64,000 nt of DNA from an uncultured Acidobacteriota bacterium (GCA_913043225.1 CAJWLU010000015.1:1-64000), one strand, 5' to 3'; numbered from the stretch's first letter, positions 829-62,301 are shown. The notes: generated by a model not told the origin, from the letters alone. Program-made: numbers and translations.

Positions 829-3507
829 GTGTCACTCCGAATATTGGTGACTGGGTACACCTCGTTCGTTCTGGGCCACGCGTTGCTATCGGTTGCGACG
901 GCGCAGATCGTCACGCCGGCAGGGCGAACGGATCCAGCCCACGCTGCGCTCGACGTTAGGCCATTCGACAACCTTGGTGGGGATGTCCTCGACGACTGGA
1001 TCGGGCAGGGCATCGCAGAGACCATTGCCATAGATCTCAGCCACGCTACGCCTCCTGGCGTGCGGTGGCGGGTTACTGGCTCGTTTCAGCGGTCTGGGGA
1101 GGTTCTCAGCATTACCGCGCGGCTGGAACTGAGCGCCGACGGGGCCCCGCGTGTCGTCGAGGTCAACGGTGCTTTCAAGGACCTCTTCCCGCTGCAGGAC
1201 GAACTGGTCGCGCGTCTCGCGGAACTCCTGCGGGAGACGCCCGCGAGCCGTCCACCCTCTCCAGCGGGAGACGCCGGTCGCATGGCCGGGTTTGAGGGCA
1301 TTCTCGGTCCACCTCCTCCGGCGCCTCCCGCCGTGGTGGCCAGGGACGCCCAGGGGCGGGTGACGATGCGCGCCATCCGCCTCGACGAGCCGCTGCGACT
1401 CGACGGCCAGTTAGATGAGCGTCTCTACCGTGAGGTCGAGCCGGTGACTGAAATGATCCAGCAGGAGCCGGACGAGGGTGCTCCCGCGACCGATCAGACC
1501 GAGATCTGGGTGGCGTTCGACGCCGATACCCTGTATGTGTCGACACGCTGCTGGAGCGAGGAGCCCGGGCGCATCATCGCCGATGTGATGAATCGCGATG
1601 GCATGAACATGTGGGGCAACGAGACCATTACGGTGGTCCTCGATACGTTCTACGACCGGCGGAACGCGTTCGCTTTCGCCACCAACGCGGTCGGGGGACT
1701 GGTCGACTCCCTGATCACTGACGAGCGAAGCCAAAACGTCGACTGGAACACCGTGTGGGATGTCCGTGTCGGGCGCTTCGACCAGGGGTGGACCATGGAG
1801 ATGGCCATTCCGTTCAAGTCACTGCGTTACCGGGCCGGACAGATGCAGCCCTGGGGTCTTAACGTTCAGCGTCGTGTTGTGTCGAAGAACGAAGTTTCGT
1901 TCATTACCCCGATGCCGGCGTCGTTGGCCTGGGAAGGGCTCTACAAGATGTCGTCGGCGGCGACGCTCGCCGGGCTCGAGGTGCCGGACTCCGGGGCGCG
2001 CGTCGAGCTCAAGCCGTATGCGATCTCCGACCTCAGCTCAGATCTGAACGCGACCCCGATGGTTCGGAACGCTCTGGGCGGAGACGCAGGCTTCGACGCC
2101 AAGTTCGGGGTTACCGCCGGGCTCACGGCTGACGTCACCTACAACACTGATTTCGCGCAGGTTGAGGTGGATGAGCAGCAGGTGAACCTGACCCGGTTCA
2201 GCCTCTTTTTTCCCGAGAAGCGGGAGTTTTTCCTCGAAGGTAAGGGCATCTTCGATTTCGCCGGCGGGCAGCAGGGCGGTGACGCCGCCACGTTCTACTT
2301 TAGTGGCAGTGAGTTTGGAGGGACCACCGCCCCCATCATGTTCTTTAGCCGGCGCATCGGGCTGCAGAACGGCCGTACCGTCCCTATTCAGGCCGGCGGA
2401 CGCCTGACGGGGAAGGTGGGGCCCTACAGCCTCGGGTTGCTGAACGTGCAGACGGGCGACGAGGCAATCTCGGGCGCTCGGCCGACGAACTTCTCCGTGG
2501 TCCGGGCCAAGCGCGATGTGCTCCGCCGGAGCGCAGTCGGGGCACTGTTCACGGGTCGTTCGGTGTCGCTTGAGGGCAACGGGGCGAATCAGACCTTCGG
2601 TGTCGACGGGGTCTTCTCGTTCTACGACAACGTTCGCATCACTTCCTACCTAGCTCGCACCCAGACATTGGGCGTGAGCGGCGACGACACGAGTTATCAG
2701 GCGCAGTTCGAGTACGGGGGCGATCGCTGGGGGCTTACCCTGGATCGACTGGCAGTCGGCGCCAACTTCAACCCCGAGCTCGGCTTCGTGCCTCGTCGCG
2801 ACTTCCGACGCAATTTCGCCCAGTTTCGGTTCAGCCCGCGGCCGCGCTCGCTGCCGTCGATCCGGAAGTTCCTGTTCCAGGCAAGTCTCGACTATACGAC
2901 CGATGGTGCCAATCAACCGGAGACCCGCCTCCAGCAGGGGATCTTCGGAATCGAGTTCGAGAACGGCGACTATTTGTTCGCCGGCACCACCAGCAACTAC
3001 GAACGGCTCGCCCGTCCCTTCGACATCACATCGGACATCGGCATTCCGGTGGGCGGTTACAACTTCGTCAACACACGGGTGGTCTACGCGTTTGGACAGC
3101 AGCGGATGCTGTCTGGCGGCCTCAGCGTCGACCACGGTGGCTTCTTCGACGGTGATCGCGTCGGGGTGGGTTACACGTTCGGACGGCTTACGGTGTCACC
3201 GCGTCTGAGCGTCGAGCCCTCGGTGTCGTTGAATCGAATCACGTTGCCTCAGGGCGAGTTCGAGACCAGGCTCGTCTCGGCTCGTACGACTTATTCGATG
3301 ACGCCGCGGATGTTCGTCGCCGCGCTGGTGCAGTACAACTCCACCCTCGATTCGCTGGGGACGAACCTCCGGTTCCGCTGGGAATACCAGCCGGGGAGTG
3401 AACTGTTCGTGGTCTACACCGACGAGCGGAACACGCTCGATTTCCGCTCGCCAGTACTCGAGAATCGCGCCCTGGTGATCAAGTTAACTAGGCTCTTCCG
3501 CTTTTAG
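829..3507 (+). CDS. Exported DUF5916 / CBM9-like outer-membrane protein with an N-terminal TolB-like domain
   Basis: Signal peptide; LDGQLDE, EMAIPFKSLRY, NTDFAQVEVD, FPEKREFFLEG motifs; C-terminal beta-signal ending RLFRF. Confidence 0.85.
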   Translation: MSLRILVTGYTSFVLGHALLSVATAQIVTPAGRTDPAHAALDVRPFDNLGGDVLDDWIGQGIAETIAIDLSHATPPGVRWRVTGSFQRSGEVLSITARLELSADGAPRVVEVNGAFKDLFPLQDELVARLAELLRETPASRPPSPAGDAGRMAGFEGILGPPPPAPPAVVARDAQGRVTMRAIRLDEPLRLDGQLDERLYREVEPVTEMIQQEPDEGAPATDQTEIWVAFDADTLYVSTRCWSEEPGRIIADVMNRDGMNMWGNETITVVLDTFYDRRNAFAFATNAVGGLVDSLITDERSQNVDWNTVWDVRVGRFDQGWTMEMAIPFKSLRYRAGQMQPWGLNVQRRVVSKNEVSFITPMPASLAWEGLYKMSSAATLAGLEVPDSGARVELKPYAISDLSSDLNATPMVRNALGGDAGFDAKFGVTAGLTADVTYNTDFAQVEVDEQQVNLTRFSLFFPEKREFFLEGKGIFDFAGGQQGGDAATFYFSGSEFGGTTAPIMFFSRRIGLQNGRTVPIQAGGRLTGKVGPYSLGLLNVQTGDEAISGARPTNFSVVRAKRDVLRRSAVGALFTGRSVSLEGNGANQTFGVDGVFSFYDNVRITSYLARTQTLGVSGDDTSYQAQFEYGGDRWGLTLDRLAVGANFNPELGFVPRRDFRRNFAQFRFSPRPRSLPSIRKFLFQASLDYTTDGANQPETRLQQGIFGIEFENGDYLFAGTTSNYERLARPFDITSDIGIPVGGYNFVNTRVVYAFGQQRMLSGGLSVDHGGFFDGDRVGVGYTFGRLTVSPRLSVEPSVSLNRITLPQGEFETRLVSARTTYSMTPRMFVAALVQYNSTLDSLGTNLRFRWEYQPGSELFVVYTDERNTLDFRSPVLENRALVIKLTRLFRF

Positions 3508-3698
3508 GTCCGTGCCGGCCCTGTGTCCCGGGCTGCGGAGCTTCTGAGTTCAGCCGGCGGAGGCTTTGTAGCAGGAATTGGGCGGAAGCCCGGTGGGAGC
3601 TGGGCTGCCCCTGGCTCGTAGCCAGCCTATCGGCGTAACTTCCGTGCTACGGTAAGCGGCATCAAGAGTTCTGCGACCAGGTCGCAAGGGGAGAAGTC

Positions 3699-8712: not shown

Positions 8713-8719
8713 GGAAGTT

Positions 8720-9268
8720 ATGGGAATCGTGACACGTGGGTTAGCGCTCTTCTGTGCCGTCCTCGGTGTGGCGGCGGTCACTTCGGCCCAGACGGTTGAT
8801 TTTGCTGTGTCTGGCAATTCGACGATCCGCGGATGGACCTGCGAGGTTAGCGGCACCGCGGAGGTCACCGCGGGCGGGGGTGCCGCCGCTGCCGGGTTCT
8901 CGTCAGGCGTGCAGGGTGTCACCCTCACGGTGCCCGTCGCCGAGTTCACCTGTCCCAACGAGGAGATGACCGAGCACCTCATGGAGGCCATGCGGCCCGA
9001 CGAGTTCGGCGAGATCACCTTCCAGATGGATGGCTACGAGGTCACGTCAAATGGGGCGACGGCCACCGGGTCGCTCACCATCCTAGAGACGACCGAGACC
9101 GTTGCGGTGCCGATGACGCTGACCGAGTCTGGAACTGGCGCGGCCATTGAGGGTGAAGTTCGCCTCGACATGACCGACTATGGGGTCGAGCCGCCTACCG
9201 TCATGCTAGGCATGCTCAGGGTGAGGCCTCAGATCACTATCGAATTCGGTGGTATCGTCGCTCCATAG
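8720..9268 (+). CDS. YceI-family lipid/polyisoprenoid-binding protein
   Basis: Signal peptide; ITF..., ATGSLTI, LDMTDYGVEPP. Confidence 0.8.
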   Translation: MGIVTRGLALFCAVLGVAAVTSAQTVDFAVSGNSTIRGWTCEVSGTAEVTAGGGAAAAGFSSGVQGVTLTVPVAEFTCPNEEMTEHLMEAMRPDEFGEITFQMDGYEVTSNGATATGSLTILETTETVAVPMTLTESGTGAAIEGEVRLDMTDYGVEPPTVMLGMLRVRPQITIEFGGIVAP

Positions 9269-9403: not shown

Positions 9404-10171
9404 ATGAGACGTAGAGAGATCGTGCGCGCGCTGGTGGTGGCACTGGCGAGTGGCGCGCTGACGGTAACTCCGGTCGTGGCACAACCCGACCCGGTTGAGA
9501 TCATGGAGCGCGTCGACCGATTGCTCCGCGGCGATTCGAGTCGGGGCGTTGCCACTATGGAGGTGGTCACCGAGAACTGGGAGCGCGAGATCACCATGGA
9601 GATGTGGTCGCTCGGTACCGAGTTCTCGCTGGTGCGGGTGCAGGCGCCGGCGCGGGAAGCGGGGACGGCGACGCTGATGGCCGAGGACAACATCTGGAAC
9701 TATCTGCCAAAGGTGGAACGTACCATCAAGATCCCATCATCAATGATGGGCGGCTCCTGGATGGGGTCTCACTTCACCAACGATGACCTGGTGCGGGAGA
9801 GTCAGCTCATAGAGGACTACGACATCGAGATCGCGTTCGCCGGCGACCGTGACGGCGACGACGTGTGGGAGTTCCGCCTGACCCCAAAATCAGAGGCGGC
9901 CGTCATCTGGGGGCATCTCGAGTTTCGGGTGCAGCAGCTTGACTACATGCCGCTATGGTCCCGTTTCTACAACGAGGACGGCGAGTTGGTGCGCACGATG
10001 GAGTACAGCGAGTTTACGGAATTCGCCGGCCGGTTGGTGCCTGCGGTGATGGACATGCAGCCGCACGACAAACCGGGTGAGCGTACGACGATTCGCTACG
10101 AGGAGCTAGAGTTCGACCTCGACATCGACGAGTCGTTCTTCTCGCTGCAGCGGCTGCAGCGGCGGCGCTGA
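9404..10171 (+). CDS. Outer-membrane lipoprotein-sorting (LolA-like) periplasmic protein
   Basis: Signal peptide; APAREAGTATL, WNYLP, SWMGSHFTNDD, FFSLQRL. Confidence 0.85.
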   Translation: MRRREIVRALVVALASGALTVTPVVAQPDPVEIMERVDRLLRGDSSRGVATMEVVTENWEREITMEMWSLGTEFSLVRVQAPAREAGTATLMAEDNIWNYLPKVERTIKIPSSMMGGSWMGSHFTNDDLVRESQLIEDYDIEIAFAGDRDGDDVWEFRLTPKSEAAVIWGHLEFRVQQLDYMPLWSRFYNEDGELVRTMEYSEFTEFAGRLVPAVMDMQPHDKPGERTTIRYEELEFDLDIDESFFSLQRLQRRR

Positions 10172-12740: not shown

Positions 12741-13441
12741 CGACACCCGATACCCTTGCCGTCGAGACCGAACACCTCTGGAAGACCTACACGCAGGAGG
12801 CCGAGGAGGTGCACGCCGTGCACGACGTGTCACTGACCGTCGAGCGCGGTGAGTTTACTGCTTTGGCCGGTCCGTCTGGTTCGGGCAAGACCACGCTGCT
12901 GAACGTCATCGGCGGGCTGACCAGGCCCACCAGCGGCAAGATCCGGGTGGCCGGGCAAGAGCTCACCGACATGTCGAATCAGGAGCTGGCCGAGCTGCGG
13001 CTCGATCAGGTTGGGTTCGTCTTCCAGGCCTACAATTTGCTGCCGGTGCTCACCGCGATGGAGAACGCCGAGTTCCCGATGCTGCTGCAGGCCGTCGACG
13101 CTGCTGAGCGGCGCGCTCGGGTCCAGGCGCTCTTCGAGCGCACCGGCATGGTGGGGTTGGAAGACCGGCGACCAGGGAAGCTGTCGGGTGGGCAGCAGCA
13201 ACGGGTGGCGGTGGTGCGGGCGGTGGCGAGCAAGCCGGCGCTGGTGCTGGCCGACGAGCCGACCGCGAATCTCGATTCGGCCGCCAGCGCGGCGCTGCTC
13301 GACATGATGGTGGAGCTGAACAACGACCTGGGCGTGACGTTCGTTTTTGCCACCCACGACGCTCGGGTGATGGAGCGCTCGCGCCGGCTGGTGCAGATGG
13401 TCGACGGCCGGGTCGATTCAGACGAGATCTGCGCTGTATGA
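12737..13441 (+). CDS. ABC transporter ATP-binding protein (LolD/MacB-like)
   Basis: Walker A GPSGSGKT, LSGGQQQR, ADEPTANLD, ATHD; ATGA overlap with the upstream gene. Confidence 0.95.
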   Translation: MTTPDTLAVETEHLWKTYTQEAEEVHAVHDVSLTVERGEFTALAGPSGSGKTTLLNVIGGLTRPTSGKIRVAGQELTDMSNQELAELRLDQVGFVFQAYNLLPVLTAMENAEFPMLLQAVDAAERRARVQALFERTGMVGLEDRRPGKLSGGQQQRVAVVRAVASKPALVLADEPTANLDSAASAALLDMMVELNNDLGVTFVFATHDARVMERSRRLVQMVDGRVDSDEICAV

Positions 13442-14625
13442 CGAGCCGCGTCGTCCGCGGGCTGCTCCTCGCCGGCCTGGTGCTGGGCGGCGCGTTGCCA
13501 GCCGCGGCGCAGACGTCGTGGCTTTCGGGTTATCTCCAGACGGTTCCCTTCTTTAGCGCGTCCACCGAGATCTCGCCATCGAACGTGGCCGACTTCAGCA
13601 GGCTCCGGCTGTCGATGGAGCCGTCCCTGGGGCCGCTGTCGTTCGAGGTGGCCTATGAACATGCTGCCACGGCGCAGCAGCGAAACAGCCGCGCCGGGTT
13701 CGGTCTGGGTGCCGTCCCCAGCGGGGGCGAGTGGTTCGACCTGGACTGGACCATTACCGAAGGGGACCACGTGCGCTGGCGCCATCGGTTCGACCGGCTG
13801 GCGGTCGCGTGGCGACCGGTCGGGGCGGTTGAGGTGACCGTGGGTCGGCAGGCGGTCTCCTGGGGCACGACCCTTTTCTTGACACCGGCCGACCCGTTTC
13901 TGCCGTTCAACCCCGCCGATCCCTTTCGCCAGTTCCGCGGTGGGGTCGACGCGATGCGTGCGCGGATCTACCCCGGGCCACTCAGTCAGATCGATCTGGT
14001 GGTGCGGCCCAGCGACACCCTGCTCGGTGAGGAGGTTACCGCGCTGGGACGAGGACTGACGTCGATCGGGACCTGGGAGGTCTCCGGTTGGGCCGGCACG
14101 CTCTACGGTGACACGGCTGGCGCCGGGGCGTTCGCGGGCGGTATCGGCGCCTGGGCCGTGCGCGGCGAAGGCGTACTCCGCGAGGTCGACGGGCTGGTCG
14201 TGTTCCGTGGCACCCTTGGTATCGACCGGATCGTGCAGCTGGGCGGACGCGATCTGTTCCTGGTAGCTGAGTATCAGCGGGACAACCTAGCCGCCGCCGG
14301 GCCGGACGGCTATCTCGCGTTGGTACAGTCTGCCCCGTTCCGCCGTGGCGAGTTCCAGGTGCTAGGGCGTGACGAGACGGCGATCCAGGCGTCCTACCAG
14401 GTGCACCCCCTCTGGGCTGTCGCCGGGCTGTGGCTGGTGAACCTGAACGATGGGAGCGCCCTCATTTCGCCCAGTGTTTCCTATTCAGCGTCGAACGACG
14501 TCTCGGTGGGCGCCGGTCTGTACTTCGGTATGGGGAACGACGAGATTACGCCGCTCCGTCCCGTACCGTCCGAGTATGGCCTGGCGGGTCAGACCGGTTA
14601 CATTTCCCTCGCCTGGTTCTTCTAG
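13438..14625 (+). CDS. Exported, probable outer-membrane beta-barrel partner of the ABC system
   Basis: Signal peptide; VGRQAVSWG, GVDA; C-terminal aromatic (LAWFF); ATGA overlap. Confidence 0.7.
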   Translation: MTSRVVRGLLLAGLVLGGALPAAAQTSWLSGYLQTVPFFSASTEISPSNVADFSRLRLSMEPSLGPLSFEVAYEHAATAQQRNSRAGFGLGAVPSGGEWFDLDWTITEGDHVRWRHRFDRLAVAWRPVGAVEVTVGRQAVSWGTTLFLTPADPFLPFNPADPFRQFRGGVDAMRARIYPGPLSQIDLVVRPSDTLLGEEVTALGRGLTSIGTWEVSGWAGTLYGDTAGAGAFAGGIGAWAVRGEGVLREVDGLVVFRGTLGIDRIVQLGGRDLFLVAEYQRDNLAAAGPDGYLALVQSAPFRRGEFQVLGRDETAIQASYQVHPLWAVAGLWLVNLNDGSALISPSVSYSASNDVSVGAGLYFGMGNDEITPLRPVPSEYGLAGQTGYISLAWFF

Positions 14626-15688: not shown

Positions 15689-15752
15689 TGCGCCGGACCA
15701 GCCAAGACGTGGTACTGTCTGAGCGTCCTTTTCATGTAGAGGTACTGGCCCA

Positions 15753-16733
15753 ATGACCACTCGACTGACCGCGTTCGCCGCCGTGGCCGCGCTCGCGCTG
15801 CCCCTGTTTGCCGTTGCTCAAGAGCTCCGGACGCCCCACGGGCACCCGGACATCAGTGGGGTCTGGGACTTCCGGACCGTGACACCGCTCGAGCGGCCCG
15901 AGGAGTTTGCCGATCAGGAGTTCCTCTCGGCCGAGGAGGTGGCCCAGTACGCGGCTGAGCGTGTCCGGGCCAACAACGCCGACCTCGATCGCGAGGAGAA
16001 GAAGCAGATCACGACCGCCCGAGGAGAGGTGAATGGCACCACCGAGACCCGCGATCTTGCTCTGGCCTACAACGACTTCTGGTGGGATCGGGGCACCGAG
16101 GTGGTCGACACCCGCCGGACGTCACTTGTCATCGATCCGCCGAACGGCCGGATTCCGGAGTTGACCGCCGAGGGCGCAGCTCGCCGGGCCGAACGCACGC
16201 GGATCAACCAGCGTCCGACTGAGGGGCCGGAAGACCGTCCCCTGGGCGAGCGGTGCATCACCGGGTTCAACTCGGGTCCGCCGATGCTGCCCGCTGCCTA
16301 CAATATGAACGTGCAAATCTTCCAGACGCCAGACCACGTGGTGCTGCTGAACGAGATGGTGCATAACGCCCGGGTTATCCCGCTCGGTGGCGGCGATCAC
16401 GCCGGCGTGCCGCTCTGGACTGGCGAGTCGCGTGGCCGCTGGGAAGGTGACACCCTGGTGGTCGAGACCAAGAACTTCCTGCGCGAGACTAGCTTCCGCG
16501 ACTCGACCAAGAACCTCCACCTCGTCGAGCGGATTACACGGCAGGACGACGAGACCCTGATCTACGAGTTCACCGTGACCGATCCGTCGACGTGGACGGT
16601 GCCCTGGACGGTCGAGTTGCCTATGCGGAAAAGCGATCTGCCGATGTACGAGTACGCCTGCCATGAGGGTAACTACGGCATGGACGGGACGCTGACCGGC
16701 GCCCGCGCCATCGAAAAGAATCAGGGGCAGTAG
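15753..16733 (+). CDS. Exported conserved hypothetical protein ('PD(I/L)SG.W ... YEYACHEGN' family)
   Basis: Signal peptide; GHPDISGVW, ERC, GESRGRWEGDTLVVET, YEYACHEGN; paralog of 60873..61763. Confidence 0.75.
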   Translation: MTTRLTAFAAVAALALPLFAVAQELRTPHGHPDISGVWDFRTVTPLERPEEFADQEFLSAEEVAQYAAERVRANNADLDREEKKQITTARGEVNGTTETRDLALAYNDFWWDRGTEVVDTRRTSLVIDPPNGRIPELTAEGAARRAERTRINQRPTEGPEDRPLGERCITGFNSGPPMLPAAYNMNVQIFQTPDHVVLLNEMVHNARVIPLGGGDHAGVPLWTGESRGRWEGDTLVVETKNFLRETSFRDSTKNLHLVERITRQDDETLIYEFTVTDPSTWTVPWTVELPMRKSDLPMYEYACHEGNYGMDGTLTGARAIEKNQGQ

Positions 16734-16823
16734 CTGGCTCCGAAGTCCGGACGGCGTTCGCCGTCCAACCGTGCCGGGTCTTCCGACACAGTTGGGCGGC
16801 GGCCCGCCGTTATCACCTGGGGT

Positions 16824-17618
16824 GTGCCTCTCGTGGTCGGCGCCCTGCTGGTCGGCACGCTCTGGACCATCCGTTCATCTTCTCCCTCGCCCTCGGTCTC
16901 ATCAGAACAGCGCGTGGCGCCCGCTGTTGTCCGTAGCCTCCGGGTGAACGTCGAGCGGAAGATCCCCCACGACACCGAAGCCTTCACGCAGGGGTTAGTG
17001 TGGGAGAACGGCGTGCTCTTCGAGAGTACGGGACTCCGAGGAGAGTCCGACCTCCGGCGCGTCGATCCCGCCACTGGTGAGGTGCAGGCGCTCGTCACCA
17101 TCGAGGAGCGGTACTTTGCCGAGGGCCTCGCGCTGGTCGACGATCGCCTCATCATGATCACGCTCGACGAGGAGGAGGCGTTCGTCTTCGATCCGAACAC
17201 ACTCGAGCGGGTGAGTACGTTCAGTTACGAGGGCGCCGGGTGGGGGCTATGCTACGACGGCCAGCGCCTGGTGATGACCGATGGCGGCGACAGGCTGACG
17301 TTTCGCGATCCAGAGACGTTCGCGGACCTGGGCAGCGTGCAGGTCCGGCTGCGGGGACAACCGCTGCGTGAACTGAACGAACTCGAGTGCGTGGGCGGTG
17401 CCGTCTATGCCAATGTCTGGGGCGAGGAATATCTGGTCCGCGTGGATCCCGACACCGGTCGGGTGACCCACCAGATCGACGCCTCGGGGCTGCTTTCTCC
17501 AGAAGAGCGCTCCGGCGCGGACGTACTCAACGGGATTGCCTGGAATCCGGAGCGCGAGACCTTCTACATCACCGGCAAGTGGTGGCCGACGATGTTCGAG
17601 GTCACGTTCGAGGAATAG
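16824..17618 (+). CDS. Glutaminyl-peptide cyclotransferase (type I QC), N-terminally membrane-anchored; true start may be CTG 16734
   Basis: PHD..AFTQGL, ESTG, YFAEGL, EGAGWGL, LNELE, ANVW, DVLNGIA, ITGKWWP. Confidence 0.92.
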   Translation: MPLVVGALLVGTLWTIRSSSPSPSVSSEQRVAPAVVRSLRVNVERKIPHDTEAFTQGLVWENGVLFESTGLRGESDLRRVDPATGEVQALVTIEERYFAEGLALVDDRLIMITLDEEEAFVFDPNTLERVSTFSYEGAGWGLCYDGQRLVMTDGGDRLTFRDPETFADLGSVQVRLRGQPLRELNELECVGGAVYANVWGEEYLVRVDPDTGRVTHQIDASGLLSPEERSGADVLNGIAWNPERETFYITGKWWPTMFEVTFEE

Positions 17619-17623
17619 GGGGC

Positions 17624-18913
17624 CTATTGGCGCTCGGCCACTAGGCGCCGCATCAGCTCGATGGTGTGCGTCGGGGCCTCATATTCCGCTTCGCCGAGAG
17701 GGGTGCGCCCGTGATGGTCCAGCGCTTCGAGATCCGCGCCAGCTTGCACCAGGAACTCTACCGTCTCGTCCTCACCGAACCGGATGGAGATGTGCAGCGC
17801 GCTCGGTTGGCCGGCCGGAGTGACATTTACGTCCAGCCCGAGTTCGGTGACCGCGAGCACCACCGCCTCGTGCTCACGGCTGCGCGAGGCCAGCAGCACC
17901 GCCCCCGCGCCTTCGTTCGAGAGGGCCGAGGCCTCGGCGCCCAACTGGGCCAGCGTTCGCATCGTCTCGGTGTGACCCGCAAGCGCCGCCGTTAGGAACG
18001 GGGTCAGCCCGCTCGTGCGGCGAGCCGCGTTCCCGGTCGGTGCCCCGCTGGTTCTACTCTGGAGGTCAGCGCCTCGCGACACCAGTTCCTCGACAAGATC
18101 GGTTTTGCCTTGCCGTGCGGCGGCATGCAGCGGAGTCGCGCCCTGATCATCGCGGGTCTGCACGTCGGCACCCTGGTCGAGCATCAGGGTCACCACCTCG
18201 TCGTGGCCGCCCGCCAAGGCCAGCAGGAACGGCGTTTGTCCGTCGGGTGCCGCCACGTGCGGGTCGGCGCCGGCCGCGATTAGCGCGCGGGTCGCGGCGG
18301 CGTCGCCCTGCCGGGCCGCGAACAGGATGGGGAGGAACCCGCTGGTCGAACTGGCGTCCACCTGAGCGTCTCGGCGGATCAGGAGCGTTGCGACGTCGGA
18401 GTGTCCGCTTGCGATGGCCCACATCAGTGCGGTCTGGCCCATCCGCGTTTCGCGGGCGTTTACGTCGGCGCCGGCATCGACGAGAAGTTCCGTCAACTCG
18501 GCGTTGCCGCTCCTGGCGGCGGCGAGTAGCGGCGTGTCGCCGCTCCAGCGCGCCACGTCGATGCGCGCGCCGGCGTCGAGCAGTTGGCGGGCGATGGCGA
18601 GATTGCCACGGGCGCTGGCCAGCAGCAGTGGGGTTTCGCCATTCTCGTCCGCGGCGTTCGGATCGGCACCAGCTTCCAGCAGTGCGTTGGCGATCGCGAC
18701 GTCGTCGCGTAGCGACGCCCAGGCCAGAGGGGTGGAGCCGTCCGACCGAGTCACGTTGACGTCGACGCCGTCGGCCAGCAGCCGGCTCACCGCGGCGATG
18801 TCCCGGCGCTGCACCGCGTCGAAGAGCGGGTCGAGGGCCGTTTGTGCACGCAGGGCTCCGGCCGTCAGATGGGCGACCGCGCACGTCGCCAGGAGCGCGC
18901 TAAGGCGTCGCAT
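17624..18913 (-). CDS. Exported ankyrin-repeat protein
   Basis: Signal peptide MRRLSALL...LRA|Q; multiple G.TPL..A...G repeats. Confidence 0.92.
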   Translation of the reverse strand: MRRLSALLATCAVAHLTAGALRAQTALDPLFDAVQRRDIAAVSRLLADGVDVNVTRSDGSTPLAWASLRDDVAIANALLEAGADPNAADENGETPLLLASARGNLAIARQLLDAGARIDVARWSGDTPLLAAARSGNAELTELLVDAGADVNARETRMGQTALMWAIASGHSDVATLLIRRDAQVDASSTSGFLPILFAARQGDAAATRALIAAGADPHVAAPDGQTPFLLALAGGHDEVVTLMLDQGADVQTRDDQGATPLHAAARQGKTDLVEELVSRGADLQSRTSGAPTGNAARRTSGLTPFLTAALAGHTETMRTLAQLGAEASALSNEGAGAVLLASRSREHEAVVLAVTELGLDVNVTPAGQPSALHISIRFGEDETVEFLVQAGADLEALDHHGRTPLGEAEYEAPTHTIELMRRLVAERQ

Positions 18914-18938
18914 GGTGCAATGGTAAACTGTCCGTCCA

Positions 18939-43457: not shown

Positions 43458-44693
43458 ATGAGCCGGATTCCAGTGACGTCACGTCGAGCCGTGTTCTTGA
43501 TGGCGTTGGTAGCTTCGGTGGTCCTCGCGCCCGTCCTCGTCTCCCAACAGCGCCAGGAAGAGGAGGCCAGGCCGCCCGGGTTGCCTCGCGATCCGGTGCC
43601 GGACGAAGTGGTCATCAATACCCACGAGATTGCCGAGGTGCGCGTGGTGACCCTCGCCCGAGGGCTGACCCATCCCTGGGGCATGGCGTTTCTCCCGGGC
43701 GGAGACATGCTGATCACGGAGCGCGCCGGGCGTCTGCGGATGCTTCGTGACGGGGTGCTCGATCCTGAGCCGGTGGCCGGTGTGCCGACCGTGCTGTCGC
43801 GAGGTCTGGCCGGCTTGATGGACGTGACCCTCCATCCAGACTTTGACCAGAACCGTCTCGTGTATCTGTCCTACACCCGACCTGTGACTGAGCGAGAGGG
43901 TACCGTCGCGCTTGTCCGAGGACGTCTCGAGGGTATGTCGCTGCGCGACGTCGAGGACGTCTTTGTCGCCGAGGCGTGGGGTGGGTCGACGGCCGCTGCC
44001 AGAATCGCGTTCGCCCCGGACGGCCTGCTGTACATGACCGTCGGCGGGGCGTTCGGGACCAATCCTGACGAGTCGCGGGCCCAGGACCCGAGTAGTCATG
44101 CGGGCAAGATTCTCCGGTTGCGCGATGACGGGTCGGTGCCGCCTGACAACCCGTTCGTGGGGCGTGACGGCTATCAGCCAGAGATTTTCTCGTTGGGCCA
44201 TCGAAATCAACAGGGGCTCGCGTTCCATCCGGCCACCGCAACGCCGTTGGCGACCGAGCATGCGGTGCAGGGCGGCGACGAGCTGAACGTCATCCAGCCG
44301 GGAGGGAACTACGGCTGGCCCGTGGTCTCCTACGGACGGCAGTACACGGGCGAGCGGGTGACTGGTCGCTTCTGGGCCGACGGGATGGTGGAGCCGCTAG
44401 TGTTCTGGGTGCCCTCGATTGCACCCTCGGGCCTGGCGTTTTACACCGGCGATCGTTTCCCGGAATGGCAGGGCAATCTCTTTGTTGGGTCGATGATGAC
44501 CGGTCGCATCGGCCGCACCGGCCATATCGAGCGGATCGTGTTCAACGAGAACGGTGAAGAGCTAGCCCGTGAGTGGCTCCTCACGGAGTTGCGTCAGCGT
44601 ATTCGCGACGTCGGGCAGGGGCCGGATGGGCTGCTCTACGTCCTGACCGAGGAGGACGACGCGACGCTGCTTCGGCTCGAGCCGATGCGCTGA
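43458..44693 (+). CDS. PQQ-dependent soluble aldose sugar dehydrogenase (GSDH/YliI-like)
   Basis: HPWGMAFLP, ITER.GRLR, GKILR, GHRNQQG, GGDELN, NYGWP, IAPSG, RIRDV. Confidence 0.92.
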   Translation: MSRIPVTSRRAVFLMALVASVVLAPVLVSQQRQEEEARPPGLPRDPVPDEVVINTHEIAEVRVVTLARGLTHPWGMAFLPGGDMLITERAGRLRMLRDGVLDPEPVAGVPTVLSRGLAGLMDVTLHPDFDQNRLVYLSYTRPVTEREGTVALVRGRLEGMSLRDVEDVFVAEAWGGSTAAARIAFAPDGLLYMTVGGAFGTNPDESRAQDPSSHAGKILRLRDDGSVPPDNPFVGRDGYQPEIFSLGHRNQQGLAFHPATATPLATEHAVQGGDELNVIQPGGNYGWPVVSYGRQYTGERVTGRFWADGMVEPLVFWVPSIAPSGLAFYTGDRFPEWQGNLFVGSMMTGRIGRTGHIERIVFNENGEELAREWLLTELRQRIRDVGQGPDGLLYVLTEEDDATLLRLEPMR

Positions 44694-49793: not shown

Positions 49794-51019
49794 ACCAACG
49801 TTTTCCACTCTTCGCGGAAGCCGCCACCTCGAGACGGTGAGACGGCAGCCATGATCACGGTCACGATGCCGTGCTCCGGGTCGATCGAGAATCTGGTGCC
49901 GGACGAGCCGTCCCACCAGTACTCGCCCGCTCCGACCGGCCAGCCGTAGGCGCCGGCGTCCAGAATCACGTTGAAGCCGAGTCCCCAGCCCGACCCGGCC
50001 ATGTAGCCGCCGCCGATCGGCATGGCGCGGGCGGGAACGTGGTTCTCGAGCATTAAGGCTACCGTGTTCTCTGAGAGTAGGCGCGTGCCAGCCAGCGAGC
50101 CATGGTTGAGGAACATCTGCGAGAACCGGAGGTAGTCGGTCACCGACGATAGAAGACCAACGCCCCCCTCGATGAGAGACGGACGCTCGGTGAAGGGCAC
50201 CTGCTCGATCGCGTACGGACGTAACTCGCCGGTCTCGCGATCGGGGCGGTAGACCGCGGCCAGTCTGTTCGCGCGTTCCCCGTCCGCCCAGAACACGGTG
50301 TCGGTCATTCCCAGCGGTTCGAAGATGCGCTGCTGGAGAAATTCATCGAAGGGTTGTCCCGACCACACCTCGACGAGGCGTCCCAGTATCGTGGTGGAGA
50401 CGCCATAGCGGAATCGGGTGCCCGGGTCTTCGAACAGTGGCATCGCGGCGACGTTGTTCACCATCGCCTCTAGGTCGATCGAACGCAGCCGCACGTCGTG
50501 GGCCCGGTAGATCGGGCTGCTCCGACTGCCGATGCCGGACGTGTGGGTCAGGAGGTGGCGCACGGTGATATCACTTTGACGAGGCCTGGTCTGTTCGAGG
50601 TTCGGCGAGGAGGCGTCGAGGAACACCCGCTGTTCGGCAAACTGGGGGAGGTAGTCCGAGATGGGGTCGTCCAGCTGGAATGTGCCGTCCTCCCACAGAA
50701 GCATTACCGCCGTACTCGTGATGGAACGGGTCATCGAGTACAGCCGGAAGATTGCGTCCTCGGGCATTGGATCGCCAACTTGCAGGTCGCGCCGGCCCAG
50801 CGCTTCGAAGTAGACCAACTTACCGTGGCGGGCCACCGCGGCCACGACCCCCGCGACGTCGCCCGCGTCGATGTGTTCCTGGAGCGCGGCGGTGGCTGCC
50901 TGAAGTCCTGTCGAGGACATGCCGACCGACTCCGGAGCCGCGCGATCCAGATCCTGCGCGGCGGCCGGTGTCCACCAAACGAGCGCGCTGACGAGCCATG
51001 CCATCTTTCGAAGCTGCAT
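49769..51019 (-). CDS. Exported serine hydrolase (beta-lactamase/EstB family)
   Basis: IFRLYSMTR, LLTHTSG, PG.RFRYG, GG.GL.S, WWDG; converges on and overlaps the DsbA gene. Confidence 0.9.
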   Translation of the reverse strand: MQLRKMAWLVSALVWWTPAAAQDLDRAAPESVGMSSTGLQAATAALQEHIDAGDVAGVVAAVARHGKLVYFEALGRRDLQVGDPMPEDAIFRLYSMTRSITSTAVMLLWEDGTFQLDDPISDYLPQFAEQRVFLDASSPNLEQTRPRQSDITVRHLLTHTSGIGSRSSPIYRAHDVRLRSIDLEAMVNNVAAMPLFEDPGTRFRYGVSTTILGRLVEVWSGQPFDEFLQQRIFEPLGMTDTVFWADGERANRLAAVYRPDRETGELRPYAIEQVPFTERPSLIEGGVGLLSSVTDYLRFSQMFLNHGSLAGTRLLSENTVALMLENHVPARAMPIGGGYMAGSGWGLGFNVILDAGAYGWPVGAGEYWWDGSSGTRFSIDPEHGIVTVIMAAVSPSRGGGFREEWKTLVYGAIEAK

Positions 51020-51084: not shown

Positions 51085-52311
51085 GTGAAACAGGCCTGTA
51101 TGCGATTCGCATGTGCTCTGGTGGTACTCGGTTTACCAGTGTCGGCCGCAGCCCAGGACTGGACCCAGTGGCGGGGCGTCAATCGGGACGGGGCGGTGCA
51201 GAGCTTCGAGGTGCCAGCAACATGGCCTACCGCGCTTGCCGAGCAGTGGACCGTAGACGTGGGTGAAGGCTATGCCTCGCCAATTCTCATCGGTGAAAGT
51301 CTGTACATGTTCAGCCGCCAGGGCGAAGAGGAAGTGATGCAGGCGCTCAACGCCGCCACCGGCCAGACCCGCTGGCGTAGCAGCTATCCCGCCAGCTTTG
51401 AGATGATCGCCGCCACCCGTCGCCACGGTCCAGGCCCGAAGGCGACGCCCGCCTATGCTGACGGTCGTCTGTTTACGTTGGGCATCAGCGGCATCGTGAC
51501 GGCGTTCGACGCCGAGAACGGCGACCAGTTATGGCAGCGGCCGGCCGACGCGGTCGAGCCGCTCTATCACACGGGGCAGTCGCCCATTGTCGACGGCGGT
51601 CAGGTGATCCTGCACGTAGGTGGCCACGATTCGGGGGCGCTTACCTCGTTCGACGTCGAGACGGGCGAGGAAGTCTGGCGCTGGGATGGTGATGGCCCCG
51701 CCTACGGGTCTCCGATCGTGGTCGAGGTCGAAGGCAGCCGCCAGGTCATAACCTTCACCCAGGAGAACTTTGTGGGTGTTTCGGTCGACAGCGGCACCTT
51801 GCTCTGGAGCCGGCCTTATACGACGCAGTCGACGACCACGTCGCAGACCCCTCGGTTGTATCAGGGCGATGTGATCGAGAGCGGCCGTGGCAACGGGATC
51901 ACCAGGTTCCGGGTGGTGCGTGAAGGTAACGCCTGGATCACCGAGGATGTGTGGCACAACGACGAGGTGTCGATGCACATGTCCAACGGCGTGGTGGTAG
52001 ACGGGGTTCTGTTCGGACTGTCCCACCTCAACAGCGGACAGTACTTCGCGCTCGACCTCGACAGCGGCACGCTGCTCTGGACCAGCGACCCCCGGCAGGC
52101 AGACCACGCGTCCATCCTCAATGTGGGCACTACGATCCTGTCGCTCGAGGAGGACGGCGAGCTGCTGGTCGTACCCCACAGCCGGACCGAGTTCGCGCCC
52201 GTTCAACGCTACGAGCTGGCCGATAGCGCCACCTGGACGCTGCCGACGCTCTCTGGCAATCGGTTGTTCGTCAAGGATATTGAGTCGCTGACGCTCTGGA
52301 CTGTCGAGTAG
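51085..52311 (+). CDS. Exported PQQ-like/BamB-like beta-propeller protein
   Basis: SD GGAGGAG; DWTQWRG.NRDG, GYASP, GPKATP, YGSP. Confidence 0.85.
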   Translation: MKQACMRFACALVVLGLPVSAAAQDWTQWRGVNRDGAVQSFEVPATWPTALAEQWTVDVGEGYASPILIGESLYMFSRQGEEEVMQALNAATGQTRWRSSYPASFEMIAATRRHGPGPKATPAYADGRLFTLGISGIVTAFDAENGDQLWQRPADAVEPLYHTGQSPIVDGGQVILHVGGHDSGALTSFDVETGEEVWRWDGDGPAYGSPIVVEVEGSRQVITFTQENFVGVSVDSGTLLWSRPYTTQSTTTSQTPRLYQGDVIESGRGNGITRFRVVREGNAWITEDVWHNDEVSMHMSNGVVVDGVLFGLSHLNSGQYFALDLDSGTLLWTSDPRQADHASILNVGTTILSLEEDGELLVVPHSRTEFAPVQRYELADSATWTLPTLSGNRLFVKDIESLTLWTVE

Positions 52312-54266: not shown

Positions 54267-55502
54267 ATGCAGACACGAAGAGAACGCCATGCCGTAGCCG
54301 CGGTGATCTGCCTGGCCCTGGTCGGAGTCGTTGGCTTTGGCGACGCCGTCGTCGACCGGATCCAGGCTGCACAAGGCTCGATGGTCCACGGCCCGATCTT
54401 CGAGGTCGACCCGCTGTGGCCACAGCCGTTGCCTAATCACTGGCTGCTCGGGACGACGATCGGTGTCTCGGTGGATGCGCGTGACCACATTTGGATCATC
54501 CACCGGGGCGATGCGCTGTCTGCGGGCGAGGTGCCGGCCGCGCAGGATCCTCCCGTCGCGGCGGAGTGCTGCTTCCCCGCGCCACCCGTACTCGAGTTCG
54601 ACCAGGATGGTCTCCTGGTCGGTCACTGGGGTGGTCCGGGTGAGGGCTACGAGTGGCCGGTCTCGAACCACGGCATCTTTGTCGACCACATGGACAACGT
54701 GTGGATAGGTGGGAACGGCGGTTTAGACTCGCACCTATTGAAGTTTGACCGGTACGGCAACTTCCTCATGCAGGTCGGGCAGGCCGGCGCCAGGATGACT
54801 GGTCCGGTCAGCGATGTCACCGGTCAGCCGACAGCGGTCGCCGACAGCAACGACACCGAGAGCTTCGGACGCGTGGCTAAGATCTTTGTCGATCCGAAGG
54901 AAAACGAGGCCTACGTCGCCGACGGCTATTTCAACAAGCGGGTCGCCGTGCTCGACGCCGAGACGGGTGCCTTCAAGCGCTTCTGGGGCGCCTATGGCAA
55001 CACGCCCGACGATGCTCCGCTGCCGCGCTACGACCCGAACGCCGAACCGCCGCAGCAGTTCCGAACGCCCGTGCACTGCGCCGACCTGTCAAACGACGGG
55101 CTTGTGTATGTGTGTGACCGGGTGGGCAACCGGATCCAGGTGTTCCAGCGGGACGGGACCTACGTCGAAGAGCTGTTCCTGGCTAAGGATACCCTGGGTG
55201 CTGGGGCGGTCTGGGACGTTGCCTTCTCACGCGACGCCGACCAGAAGTACATATACGTGGCCGATGGCGTGAACGAGAAGGTCTACATCATCGACCGCAA
55301 GGAGATGGAACTCATCTCGAGCTTCGGTGATGGCGGTAGGCAGCCCGGTCAGTTCTACGGTGCCCACAGCATCATGACCGACTCGCACGGCAACATCTAC
55401 GTGACCGAGACCTTCGAAGGAAAGCGGCTGCAGAAGTTCGTCTACAAGGGTGAAGGTTCTATCCGAGCTGGCGACCAGGGCGTGGTGTGGCCGTCGCGGT
55501 AG
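54267..55502 (+). CDS. Exported NHL-repeat (PAL-like) beta-propeller protein
   Basis: FEVDPLWP.PLP..W, SNHGIFVD, VADGYFNKRV, VHC, CDR..NRIQVF; SD GAGGGGAG. Confidence 0.85.
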   Translation: MQTRRERHAVAAVICLALVGVVGFGDAVVDRIQAAQGSMVHGPIFEVDPLWPQPLPNHWLLGTTIGVSVDARDHIWIIHRGDALSAGEVPAAQDPPVAAECCFPAPPVLEFDQDGLLVGHWGGPGEGYEWPVSNHGIFVDHMDNVWIGGNGGLDSHLLKFDRYGNFLMQVGQAGARMTGPVSDVTGQPTAVADSNDTESFGRVAKIFVDPKENEAYVADGYFNKRVAVLDAETGAFKRFWGAYGNTPDDAPLPRYDPNAEPPQQFRTPVHCADLSNDGLVYVCDRVGNRIQVFQRDGTYVEELFLAKDTLGAGAVWDVAFSRDADQKYIYVADGVNEKVYIIDRKEMELISSFGDGGRQPGQFYGAHSIMTDSHGNIYVTETFEGKRLQKFVYKGEGSIRAGDQGVVWPSR

Positions 55503-55716: not shown

Positions 55717-56712
55717 TCAGAACATCGCGATCGGATTCACCGGCGACCCTGTGCCATTCGGGATAGGGAGCGGGGCGATCGTCATCATGAACTCGTAGCG
55801 TTCCCGCTCGGCCGCGGCCGCGGCCAGCGCCTGGAAGTCCGCCCGGTCCAGCACCTGGATGCCCAGGATGGTGAGGGCGAAGTTGTGCAAGGCGAGGCGC
55901 GAGATGTCGCCCTCGGGTTGCGGCATGTAGCCCGGCGTTTCCCACCCCGCGATGGCCACGTCACGCTCCTTAAGCCAAGGGATGACGTGATTGTCCAGGC
56001 CGGCCGCCTCCTGTCCGGTATCGAACGGGCCGAGGGCGTCCTCACGGGCCCATCGTCCCCACCGGACCAGGAACGCGTCGCCGGAGCCCACCCTGACACC
56101 GGTCCGAGCTTCCCAGGCTTCCAGGTCGGCCACGGTGATTCGCGTGCCAGGCTCCAGATAGGCGACGTCCTTCAACCGAGGGATGTCGTAGAGGACCGCG
56201 CGCGTAACCAGGCCGTCCTTGACCGTCATGATGGAGTTCTTGGTCGCCCCTTCCTCCATCGTAACCAGGCCGTCGATATCGTAGCCGTTCCACATCTTGC
56301 CATCGAAGAAGATATGCGCGAATGCGTCGAGGTGCGTTGTGCCCGGCCCGTGGATACAGGGGTAGGCGACCGTGTCGCTCGCGGCCGTCCGAGTAGCTCG
56401 TACCATCGACCACTCGATCGGGCACGGGTTGGCGATGGTAGCGACCTTCTCCGCGTCAGAGGCGAGCGAGACGGTGAAGCCGTCCTCGACCAGCGCTGCT
56501 GCTTCCGCTCGCTTGGTCGGCGTGATCAGGTTAGCCGCGCCGAGCTCATCATCGGGGCCCCAGCGTCCCCAGTTCGACAGCTCTGTTTGCCACTGGTTGT
56601 ACTGGGTCTGGGTGACCAGCGGCGGCATGTTAGCCCGCTGGCCGTGGAGCGAGACGGTAAGCACGCCGGTCAGGGCCGCGACCCAGATCGCCGCGTCGCG
56701 TTGTGTCGTCAT
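55717..56712 (-). CDS. Exported cyclase-family protein (paralog of 27112)
   Basis: [37 protein letters not shown]. Confidence 0.88.
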   Translation of the reverse strand: MTTQRDAAIWVAALTGVLTVSLHGQRANMPPLVTQTQYNQWQTELSNWGRWGPDDELGAANLITPTKRAEAAALVEDGFTVSLASDAEKVATIANPCPIEWSMVRATRTAASDTVAYPCIHGPGTTHLDAFAHIFFDGKMWNGYDIDGLVTMEEGATKNSIMTVKDGLVTRAVLYDIPRLKDVAYLEPGTRITVADLEAWEARTGVRVGSGDAFLVRWGRWAREDALGPFDTGQEAAGLDNHVIPWLKERDVAIAGWETPGYMPQPEGDISRLALHNFALTILGIQVLDRADFQALAAAAAERERYEFMMTIAPLPIPNGTGSPVNPIAMF

Positions 56713-59579: not shown

Positions 59580-59603
59580 CGCGGCGTTCGAACAGGCTCT
59601 TCC

Positions 59604-59632: not shown

Positions 59633-59771
59633 CCGCGTCACCGTTTCGAACGGTGCACCCCGGCCAGTGAGTCCTTGGGCTCTCCCGGGTGATGTATGCC
59701 GGTGGGCGGTTTCGGTTCAGCTGGCCACGTAGGCTGAACCCGCTTGGGTTGACTAGGGAGAAAGCTAGCGG

Positions 59772-60299: not shown

Positions 60300-60303
60300 T
60301 CTG

Positions 60304-60780: not shown

Positions 60781-60872
60781 GAGCAAGGTGACGTCGGTGG
60801 TCCGGGCCGTTTCGCTGTGAGACGGGCGGGCCAGTTAAGGACACGCGCGTGGCGTGAGGGAGACATAGCACA

Positions 60873-61763
60873 ATGCGAAATCGGCTCAAGACCACGATGA
60901 TTGCTGGCGCGACGGCGGCCGTGCTGGCCGTCGGCTTCACGCTGGCGCCCCAGACAGTGGAGGGGCAGGATGGCTATCGCGCCCCCCGCACCGCCGATGG
61001 CCAGCCTGACCTGAACGGGATCTGGCAGGCACTCGGCGCCCAACACTACGATATCGAACCGCATGCCGCGCGCTTCGGTCCCGTGGTGGAGATGGCGGCC
61101 CACGGGGCGATCCCCGCCGGGCTCGGCATCGTCGAGGGCGGCGAGATTCCGTATCGTCCGGAAGCTCGGGCCCAGCAGCAGGAGAACCTCAATTTCTGGC
61201 TGGAGCGTGACCCGGCCACCAAGTGCTACATGCCCGGGATTCCGCGGGCGAACTACATGCCCTATCCGTTCCAGTTGGTGCAGACGCCCGAGTACGTGCT
61301 CTTCGCGTACGAGTTCGCGAGCGCGAGCCGGATCGTCTACATGGACCGCCCCGACTTCGAGGCGCCGGTCGATTCCTGGATGGGTCACAATATCGGTCGA
61401 TGGGAGGGTGAAAGCCTGGTCATCGACGTGACTGCCCAGATGCCGGACACCTGGTTCGATATGTCAGGCAACCACCACAGCGTGAACATGGCTGTGGAGG
61501 AGCGCTGGACTGCTCTCAGCGAAAACCACCTGATGTATGAGGCGACCATCACCGACGATGAGATCTTCACGCGGCCTTGGACGATCCGGATGCCGATGTA
61601 TCGCCGCATCGACGAGAACATGCAGCTGCTCGAGTACAAGTGCGTCGAGTTCGCCGAGGAGCTGATGTACGGCCATCTGCGGAAGGATCCGGACCTGACC
61701 CCCGTCTTCCGGGCCAGCGGATATGGCTCCGATCGCGAGATCGTGCTCGAGCCGCCGCAGTAG
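60873..61763 (+). CDS. Exported conserved hypothetical protein ('PDLNGIW' family, paralog of 15753)
   Basis: PRTADGQPDLNGIWQ, DPATKC.MPG.PR, WMG...GRWEG.SLV, LLEYKC. Confidence 0.78.
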   Translation: MRNRLKTTMIAGATAAVLAVGFTLAPQTVEGQDGYRAPRTADGQPDLNGIWQALGAQHYDIEPHAARFGPVVEMAAHGAIPAGLGIVEGGEIPYRPEARAQQQENLNFWLERDPATKCYMPGIPRANYMPYPFQLVQTPEYVLFAYEFASASRIVYMDRPDFEAPVDSWMGHNIGRWEGESLVIDVTAQMPDTWFDMSGNHHSVNMAVEERWTALSENHLMYEATITDDEIFTRPWTIRMPMYRRIDENMQLLEYKCVEFAEELMYGHLRKDPDLTPVFRASGYGSDREIVLEPPQ

Positions 61764-61780
61764 TTGTAGTAGTCAGTTTG

Positions 61781-61817
61781 CACCGGGCCATGGTACCCAT
61801 ACTGCCGTGGCCCGGTG
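61781..61817 (+). other. 15-bp hairpin after 61763, abutting the next -35
   Basis: CACCGGGCCATGGTA / TGCCGTGGCCCGGTG (two G-U pairs). Confidence 0.55.
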
Positions 61818-61846
61818 TTGACGAATCCACCGCAATGGGTGATAAT
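61818..61846 (+). promoter_or_regulatory. Putative sigma70 promoter for the DUF6152 gene
   Basis: TTGACG-N17-GATAAT. Confidence 0.55.
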
Positions 61847-61884
61847 GCTGGAAAAGTTTGCTCACACCGAGGAGGCATAGCCGA

Positions 61885-62301
61885 ATGCGAAGAAATATAG
61901 CCGTTGTCGTGGCCGGAGTTGTCATGGCGCTGGCCACTGTACCGGTGGTCGCGCATCATGCATTTTCGGCAGAGTTCGATGCCAATCGCCCCATCCACCT
62001 TGAAGGCACCGTGGTGAAGATGGAGTGGATCAACCCCCACGCTTGGGTGCATCTGGAGCTTGAAGATGGGACCGTGTGGATGGTCGAGGGCGGCACGCCC
62101 AACACCCTTCTGCGCCGCGGTTTCACCAAGAACTCGCTGCTGCCAGGCACTAAGATCATCGTCGACGGTTACCAGGCGAAGGACGGGTCGGAAAAGGGTA
62201 ATGGCCGTGACCTGACCTTCGAAGATGGTCGGAAACTGTTCATGGGGTCATCCGGCACCGGCGCGCCGAGAGACGGTCGCGACGCCACCGAGCCGAATTA
62301 A
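61885..62301 (+). CDS. DUF6152-like exported protein
   Basis: SD GAGGAGG; signal VVA|HHAFSAEFD, G.V..EW.NPHAW, W.VEG..PN.L.RRG. Confidence 0.8.
   Translation: MRRNIAVVVAGVVMALATVPVVAHHAFSAEFDANRPIHLEGTVVKMEWINPHAWVHLELEDGTVWMVEGGTPNTLLRRGFTKNSLLPGTKIIVDGYQAKDGSEKGNGRDLTFEDGRKLFMGSSGTGAPRDGRDATEPN

Follow-up and report, generated by a model that had tools for sequence, protein, structure and literature searches.

Glutamine as the first mature residue of predicted exported proteins, and two plant-type glutaminyl cyclases, in a marine acidobacterium

In the genome of a marine, free-living bacterium of the phylum Acidobacteriota, most predicted substrates of signal peptidase I (SPase I) begin with glutamine once the signal peptide is removed. 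We studied this pattern, Gln at position +1 or Gln(+1), in a stretch of 64,000 nucleotides, hereafter the window (contig C15:1-64000; GCA_913043225.1 CAJWLU010000015.1), and across the source genome (G000; 3.85 Mb, 64% G+C, 55 contigs). The window also encodes a glutaminyl cyclase (QC), here named QC1. A first-pass annotation of the window had pointed to a probably acidobacterial lineage, and the genome was indeed placed in the order Vicinamibacterales of Acidobacteriota; three primer motifs turned up no rRNA in the assembly. The Gln(+1) bias is genuine, extends over the whole proteome and is specific to SPase I sites, lipoproteins being free of it. Gln comes first after the cut in over half of the Sec/SPase I substrates of this genome, the probable share being about three quarters.

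Gln(+1) in the majority of SPase I substrates is known as the Q-rule. It was defined for Bacteroidetes, where Gln(+1) exceeds 48% in 332 of 334 cases, with a mean of 71% (Bochtler et al. 2018, PMC5837995; this paper and PMC10653852 are cited throughout from their accessible parts). Judging from sequence, we consider it fairly probable that the acidobacterium follows a rule of the Bacteroidetes kind, in which one or more anchored cyclases would cap exported Gln N-termini as predicted pyroglutamate. SPase I would expose the N-terminal Gln, and the anchored cyclase(s), facing the periplasm, would turn it into pyroglutamate as the protein emerges. The cap may then shield exported proteins from the cell's own exported aminopeptidases, as has been proposed for Porphyromonas gingivalis.

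Gln after signal peptidase I sites in the genome and the window

Genes in the source genome were called with a self-trained codon log-odds model, which yielded 3,002 genes covering 88% of the DNA. Signal peptides were sought with an ad hoc scan that required an n-region of net positive charge, a core of 8 residues scoring 1.9 or more on the Kyte-Doolittle scale, and a -3/-1-legal cleavage site 1-13 residues past the core. Residues after the cut were ignored, making the scan blind to position +1. N-termini were excluded if they contained a lipobox or a hydrophobic stretch of more than 19 residues, if a strongly hydrophobic window of 19 residues came later in the protein, if the start lay more than 40 codons inside the open reading frame, or if the mature part was shorter than 60 residues. 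The scan is permissive, and 756 of the 3,002 genes passed these filters.

At the blind best site, Gln came next in 289 of the 755-756 filtered proteins, compared with a Gln content of 3.2% in the proteome. For blind AXA sites the count was 182/358 (51%), as against 365/11,825 (3.1%) for AXA motifs in protein interiors; interior occurrences of any legal motif were followed by Gln in 4,707/157,570 cases (3.0%). Behind the N-terminal hydrophobic cores, Gln stood after 495 of 3,276 legal sites versus 209 of 6,345 other positions of the same stretch (Fisher odds ratio 5.2, p = 1.5e-92). Gln accounted for 1.4% of the residues within these signal peptides. Of 66 lipobox candidates, two had Gln after the Cys, a position where G, A, L and S were the most frequent residues.

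For many of the blind picks without Gln, another legal site with Gln after it lay 2-5 residues further on. We therefore built a cross-validated profile of positions -12 to -1, blind to the plus side, with half of the contigs serving for training and the remaining half for scoring. Gln(+1) was found at 290/519 (56%), 244/373 (65%) and 155/200 (78%) of the SPase I sites at rising thresholds, a majority throughout by our own predictors rather than by SignalP. Such a rise is expected if the leftover non-Gln picks are largely false positives. In a self-consistent profile, Gln(+1) was present in 334/532, with A at -1 in 80% and A or V at -3 in 74%. Two other procedures were abandoned. When a profile was trained from the minus side only, it wandered into the hydrophobic core, and counting any legal site followed by Gln gave a high baseline (8/48 in Vibrio, 12/43 in Azospirillum), so that the profile-picked site was adopted instead.

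Four control replicons were run through the same pipeline, with the ad hoc blind pick and with the loose-threshold profile. Gln(+1) was found in 33/61 and 17/23 (74%), respectively, for the Persicobacter plasmid (Bacteroidota, 400 kb). The corresponding counts were 2/48 and 1/31 (3%) for a Vibrio campbellii replicon (300 kb), 3/29 and 3/21 (14%) for a Ralstonia pickettii plasmid (200 kb, 62% G+C), and 7/43 and 8/23 (35%) for an Azospirillum brasilense plasmid (600 kb). The source genome differed from the three proteobacterial controls (12/75 pooled; p = 3e-11) and not significantly from Persicobacter (p = 0.13). The pattern could in principle arise from sites chosen by eye, from G+C composition or from the predictor itself, since the cleavage sites are predictions and the predictor lets many genes through. 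The predictor is blind to what follows the site, however, the interior control stays at the level of the proteome, Gln(+1) climbs with stringency, and the same code separates Vibrio and the G+C-rich Ralstonia plasmid from the Bacteroidota replicon. The control results therefore indicate that the bias is an artefact neither of the code nor of G+C, and we regard such an origin as highly improbable.

In the window, the first-pass annotation had listed 20 N-termini with Gln at +1, giving for each the gene start, not the cleavage position. All 20 translated as described from those starts (20/20), and the pattern read there by eye was confirmed. The claimed site was the blind best pick in 15 of the 20 and was -3/-1-legal in 18; the remaining two start at 54267 (Gln at -3) and 56712 (n-region without net positive charge). 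Our own window set comprised 22 signal-peptide-like N-termini without a lipobox, 16 of which had a legal site followed by Gln. The six others were those of an FMN dehydrogenase (7162) and a DUF1552 protein (21239), both of twin-arginine type, a matrixin (PF00413; 33702), an anchor-like N-terminus (48440), the protein at 54267 and a DUF6152 protein (61858). The Gln-first proteins of the window mostly belong to ordinary exported families, including PQQ dehydrogenases, glucose/sorbosone dehydrogenase, LolA-like, YceI, beta-lactamase-family and esterase proteins, with a few coming from families normally found in the cytoplasm.

Two type I cyclases and their N-termini

QC1 (16824..17618, plus strand; 264 aa from GTG 16824) was identified as a type I (plant-type, five-bladed propeller) glutaminyl cyclase, as the first-pass annotation had proposed. 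It matched PF05096 with E = 9e-90 and 300.9 bits (cut-off 22.3), the match spanning positions 15-249 of the 249 in the profile. At the N-terminal end, a hydrophobic segment (PLVVGALLVGTLWTI) precedes a Ser/Pro-rich linker, and the catalytic domain starts at about residue 41. Searches of the PDB returned 3nol (5.4e-59), 3nok (1.4e-50), 3mbr (8e-50) and 2faw (1.8e-44). We take these structures (3nol/3nom, 3nok, 3mbr and 2faw/2iwa) to come from Zymomonas, Myxococcus, Xanthomonas and papaya, respectively. In the 2faw alignment, Q56, E100, N185 and K252 of QC1 aligned with Q24, E69, N155 and K225, which are listed as the catalytic residues of papaya QC (PMC5837995); all four are thus intact.

A second PF05096 gene, QC2, lies on contig C29. 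The protein is 56% identical to QC1 and has the same four catalytic residues. Its N-terminus (MGRTNRAKTVARRRS...RHWLALALLTLLVAGGAFLL) consists of an Arg-rich tail and one helix (HWLALALLTLLVAGGAFLL), consistent with a signal anchor.

The N-terminal membrane anchor that had been ascribed to QC1 is less certain. From GTG 16824, the sole in-frame ATG/GTG/TTG start, QC1 does have a 15-residue hydrophobic stretch, with Arg after it, but no Lys or Arg comes before it, and the clear anchor belongs to QC2 instead. Upstream of the start, positions 16734..16823 (plus strand) form an open stretch of 30 codons that shares the frame of the preceding gene (15753-16733) and comes right after its TAG stop (16731-16733). 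This stretch is Arg/Ser-rich (..GRRPAVITWG) and contains no ATG, GTG or TTG. Its translation would provide QC1 with a positively charged tail and with a membrane helix of 22 residues; an Arg-rich tail with a helix of about 19 residues is common to the ortholog in the same-family genome G002 and to QC2. Possible explanations for this 5' region are a non-canonical start (CTG 16734 or ATC 16812), read-through of the stop codon or an assembly error. No family was found for the preceding gene in a Pfam search.

These features raise the question of which enzyme would act in the periplasm. QC1 might be 5'-defective or wrongly oriented, leaving the capping to QC2 with its textbook signal anchor; the uncharged N-terminus from GTG 16824 and the start-free frame of 90 bases before it both favour this. 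QC1 nonetheless keeps its four catalytic residues and is 86% identical to its counterpart in a genome of the same genus, with which it pairs at 100/100 in the cyclase tree. The upstream frame encodes an Arg-rich tail as in the G002 ortholog, which suggests a non-canonical start, with a defective 5' end as the alternative. Four marine RNA libraries yielded contigs that cover, in pieces and at 95-99% likeness, 15745-16957 (with 16325-16957 reaching across the 5' region) and 17402-17698; DNA can occur in such libraries, so this is weak evidence and shows neither transcription nor the start site. On balance, we find it somewhat unlikely that QC1 is out of action.

Relatives and the link between the bias and the cyclase

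PF05096 was detected in 30 of the 41 genomes of a search among relatives (the source genome included). All 24 other genomes of its own family had the gene, several of them in two copies, as did 5 of 16 other families of Vicinamibacterales and 62 of 201 genomes sampled across Acidobacteriota. In other families of the order, the cyclase occurs as a lipoprotein (G029 and G027) or with a cleavable signal peptide ending in VSG/QG (the slash marks the cut; G030).

A tree of 40 cyclases (leaving out L006, L032, L034, L035, L038, L042, L043 and L046-L051, and without Bacteroidota sequences) joined the QC1 and same-genus (G001) pair with QC2 and the G002 copy at 96/92. Cyclases from three further Vicinamibacterales families grouped apart in a clade with Bathyarchaeia sequences at 100/100; the backbone was not resolved. 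This topology would fit a gene that was duplicated inside the family and that is patchy and prone to transfer. The clade unites the cyclases of G029, G027 and G030 (L001-L003) with the Bathyarchaeia-labelled contigs L025, L030 and L031, which suggests either inter-domain transfer or mis-binned contigs.

Gln(+1) in relatives was scored with the profile at the loose threshold on 100-400 kb per genome, which makes the counts small. Among PF05096-bearing genomes of the order, 12/20 was obtained for G003 of the same family, 3/5 for G040 and 2/4 for G164. Three relatives in the order that are 97-100% complete and have no PF05096 match, G034, G038 and G031, gave 16/34, 9/20 and 9/27, or 34/81 (42%) pooled; for G038 and G031, 200 of about 300 kb had been picked around M28 peptidase genes and are not a random sample. 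Six PF05096-bearing genomes of other acidobacterial classes gave 14/44 pooled, four PF05096-bearing outgroups of other phyla gave 6/21 pooled, and G044, with no PF05096 match, gave 1/4. An early impression that the rule extends across the whole phylum was dropped, as the other classes could not be told apart from the proteobacterial controls (14/44 vs 12/75, p = 0.065). We read these counts as a strong rule that belongs to the family of the source genome and probably to its order as well, and that is weaker but not gone where PF05096 is missing.

The Azospirillum count of 8/23, which shows that intermediate Q-values exist, comes from plasmid p2 (NZ_CP032347.1, loci L199-L228), without a PF05096 match; the search covered this replicon, with the chromosome outside it. 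PF05096 was present in the control genomes of Caulobacter, Deinococcus and Corynebacterium.

The comparison with cyclase presence and absence, which the first-pass annotation had proposed as a check, came out in two parts. QC-bearing Vicinamibacterales exceeded the QC-lacking trio (307/548 vs 34/81, p = 0.023), in the direction expected for a link with the cyclase. The trio in turn exceeded Vibrio and Ralstonia taken together (34/81 vs 4/52, p = 1.1e-5). These p-values overstate the evidence, as related genomes are not independent samples.

A type II cyclase was also sought. Matches to PF04389 (M28) occurred in G000, G003, G034, G038 and G031. For G038 and G031, NCBIfam searches with 19 proteins of M28 loci returned only aminopeptidase or amidohydrolase matches and no cyclase name; this database cannot settle the question, because QC1 too has no NCBIfam match. 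The QC-lacking genomes alone showed three weak M28 matches, which were set aside after their translations were read, without a family search, as a cytoplasmic-looking protein and M42/M20-like peptidases. Nor was a type II cyclase found in the source genome, where a PDB search with two M28 proteins returned only aminopeptidases, keratinase and glutamate carboxypeptidases. The nine M28 matches of the source genome lie on contigs C2, C5, C10, C12 and C29; most of the proteins are about 500-600 aa long, have signal peptides or lipoboxes and are Gln-first themselves, and together they form a large exported aminopeptidase set for 3.85 Mb. Of nine proteins of the source genome inspected by eye, seven end their signal peptide in a site of the A/Q type.

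Several of these results weigh against cyclase-driven capping in the source genome. Our calls of genes and signal peptides were made with crude tools rather than with Prodigal and SignalP; false positives remain, and the true Q-value is only bracketed by the percentages given. QC1 lacks a positive n-region from its only standard start. Possession of the cyclase alone does not make a Q-rule, given 6/21 in the QC-bearing outgroups and 14/44 in the other classes. The link between the bias and PF05096 is loose, because three QC-lacking relatives still reach 42%, well above the Vibrio and Ralstonia level, and no type II cyclase was found among the M28-family proteins of G034, G038 and G031.

The same results bear on a reading in which the Gln(+1) bias is real but independent of the PF05096 cyclases. 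It would then reflect a preference of signal peptidase or of export, or a cyclisation that is spontaneous or due to an unrecognised enzyme, with QC1 and QC2 acting on narrower substrates. The counts in the QC-lacking trio and the fruitless search for a type II enzyme there favour it, as do the baseline-to-intermediate values of QC-bearing outgroups and other classes and the Azospirillum plasmid without a QC match. Within the order, however, QC-bearing genomes stand above QC-lacking ones, with the reservation about relatedness made above, and the gene has been kept in every genome searched of the family. Moreover, the causal link from cyclase to Q-rule was shown experimentally in Bacteroidetes (PMC5837995; PMC10653852). 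We judge independence of the cyclases unlikely and prefer capping by anchored cyclases.

Rather than being peculiar to Bacteroidetes, the Q-rule could also be a graded trait that arose repeatedly in several diderm phyla and that, in Vicinamibacterales, is partly uncoupled from both cyclase classes, since about 40-50% of secreted proteins are Gln-first in genomes with neither a PF05096 match nor a recognisable type II cyclase. We hold this to be a doubtful, though conceivable, account. If it were true, either a glutaminyl cyclase of a third kind has so far escaped recognition, or N-terminal Gln is of selective value even when no enzyme acts on it.

Signal peptides of the window and comparison with known Q-rule systems

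On the plus strand of the window, the blind best pick fell directly before Gln in the signal peptides of a DUF5916 protein (829..903, VATA/Q), a LolA-like protein (9404..9481, PVVA/Q), a protein without a Pfam family (13438..13509, PAAA/Q), the product of the gene directly upstream of QC1 (15753..15818, FAVA/Q), a further protein (29106..29168, NTGA/Q), an esterase (BD-FAE / alpha-beta hydrolase; 31934..31996, TAAA/Q), an RraA-like protein (34363..34422, LAAA/Q), a PQQ dehydrogenase (37582..37665, LASA/QQ), a glucose/sorbosone dehydrogenase (43458..43544, VLVS/QQ) and a PQQ_2 (BamB-like) propeller (51085..51153, SAAA/Q). The same was observed on the minus strand for a DUF2911 protein (37194..37286, SATA/Q) and a beta-lactamase-family protein (50957..51019, PAAA/Q).

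In five signal peptides the site before Gln was legal and the blind pick lay earlier: by 4 residues in a YceI-like protein (8720..8788, plus strand, VTSA/Q), by 3 in an ankyrin-repeat protein (18845..18913, minus strand, ALRA/Q), by 2 at 28208..28285 (plus strand, GAAA/QQ), by 1 in an HpcH/HpaI-like protein (35443..35511, plus strand, VVGG/Q) and by 6, at FTLA/P, at 60873..60965 (plus strand, TVEG/Q). A DUF1592/DUF1588-type (PSD/PSCyt) protein has a signal peptide ending in PALA/Q (18939..19019, plus strand) that includes LAGC, an alternative lipobox. The two weak cases are an NHL-repeat protein (54267..54371, plus strand), whose claimed site IQAA/Q lies 35 residues from the start and is illegal in the scan, and a cyclase-family (PF04199) protein (56641..56712, minus strand; SLHG/Q), which the charge filter rejected.

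Some neighbouring genes deserve mention. The ankyrin-repeat protein (476 aa, 17624-19054, minus strand; Ank_2, E = 5.5e-62) sits immediately downstream of QC1 and is encoded by the other strand. The RraA-like gene (PF03737, 34363-35226) adjoins that of the HpcH/HpaI aldolase-like protein (PF03328, 35443-36405); both families are usually cytoplasmic, and both proteins have clear signal peptides, ending in A/Q or G/Q. At 18939-22576, the gene of a DUF1592/DUF1588/DUF1587/DUF1585/DUF1595 protein precedes that of a DUF1552 protein, a pairing of a kind named for planctomycetes. The leader of the DUF1552 protein is twin-arginine-like and lacks a Gln site, and it recurs (MIITKM.LPRRT.LRG.G) in several DUF1552 paralogues elsewhere in the genome.

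Among known systems, the closest likeness is to the Q-rule of Flavobacteriia. The first-pass annotation had contrasted QC1 with Bacteroidetes on the assumption that these use a different, non-type-I QC. This part was not borne out: plant-type (type I) QCs, mostly lipoproteins, are typical of Flavobacteriia (PMC5837995), so the enzyme class is shared and is not a convergent substitute. Both systems have Gln(+1) in most SPase I substrates, a five-bladed propeller QC with E69, N155 and K225 conserved, and an enzyme tethered to the membrane, in the acidobacterium by prediction. They differ in phylum and in the tether, a lipobox in Flavobacteriia and a predicted signal-anchor helix in the family of the source genome; furthermore, the source genome has two paralogues. 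The acidobacterial system would thus be of Bacteroidetes type with a Flavobacteriia-type enzyme in a distant phylum, a helix anchor taking the place of the lipid anchor.

The Q-rule of P. gingivalis relies on an enzyme of unrelated fold, the type II (animal-type, M28-like) lipoprotein PgQC (PG2157), and there essentiality and pyroglutamate were shown experimentally (PMC5837995; PMC10653852). The solved type I cyclases resemble QC1 over the whole catalytic domain (E = 5e-59 to 2e-44) and in all four catalytic residues; QC1 differs from them in sitting in a genome with a Gln-first secretome. To our knowledge, no set of substrates spanning the proteome has been linked to the solved bacterial enzymes.

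Outside Bacteroidetes, high Q-values were also recorded in Ignavibacterium and in a small number of Chlorobi and of cyanobacteria, and intermediate ones in some other non-Bacteroidetes; Acidobacteria receive no mention in the accessible part of that paper (PMC5837995). The 2023 mBio paper describes the Q-rule as occurring "exclusively in the Bacteroidetes phylum", proposes protection from aminopeptidases, and argues for a special proteolytic pressure and for cyclase inhibitors as narrow-spectrum drugs (PMC10653852, accessible part). Full-text literature searches, whose scope did not extend to subscription journals, returned no publication on a Gln(+1) rule or cyclase capping in Acidobacteria, in agreement with the first-pass annotation, which knew of no description.

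Gln(+1) at the level of Bacteroidota, together with the organism's own anchored cyclases, in a marine acidobacterium would make the trait wider than the exclusive distribution stated in the accessible part of PMC10653852, and would provide a second, unrelated lineage in which to ask why bacteria cap their exported proteins. Knowledge of the mature N-terminus matters for signal-peptide predictors, for searches in N-terminal proteomics, where pyroglutamate should be allowed for, and for the heterologous expression of acidobacterial enzymes. The QC-lacking relatives with their intermediate bias offer a natural experiment on the cyclase as the driver of the bias.

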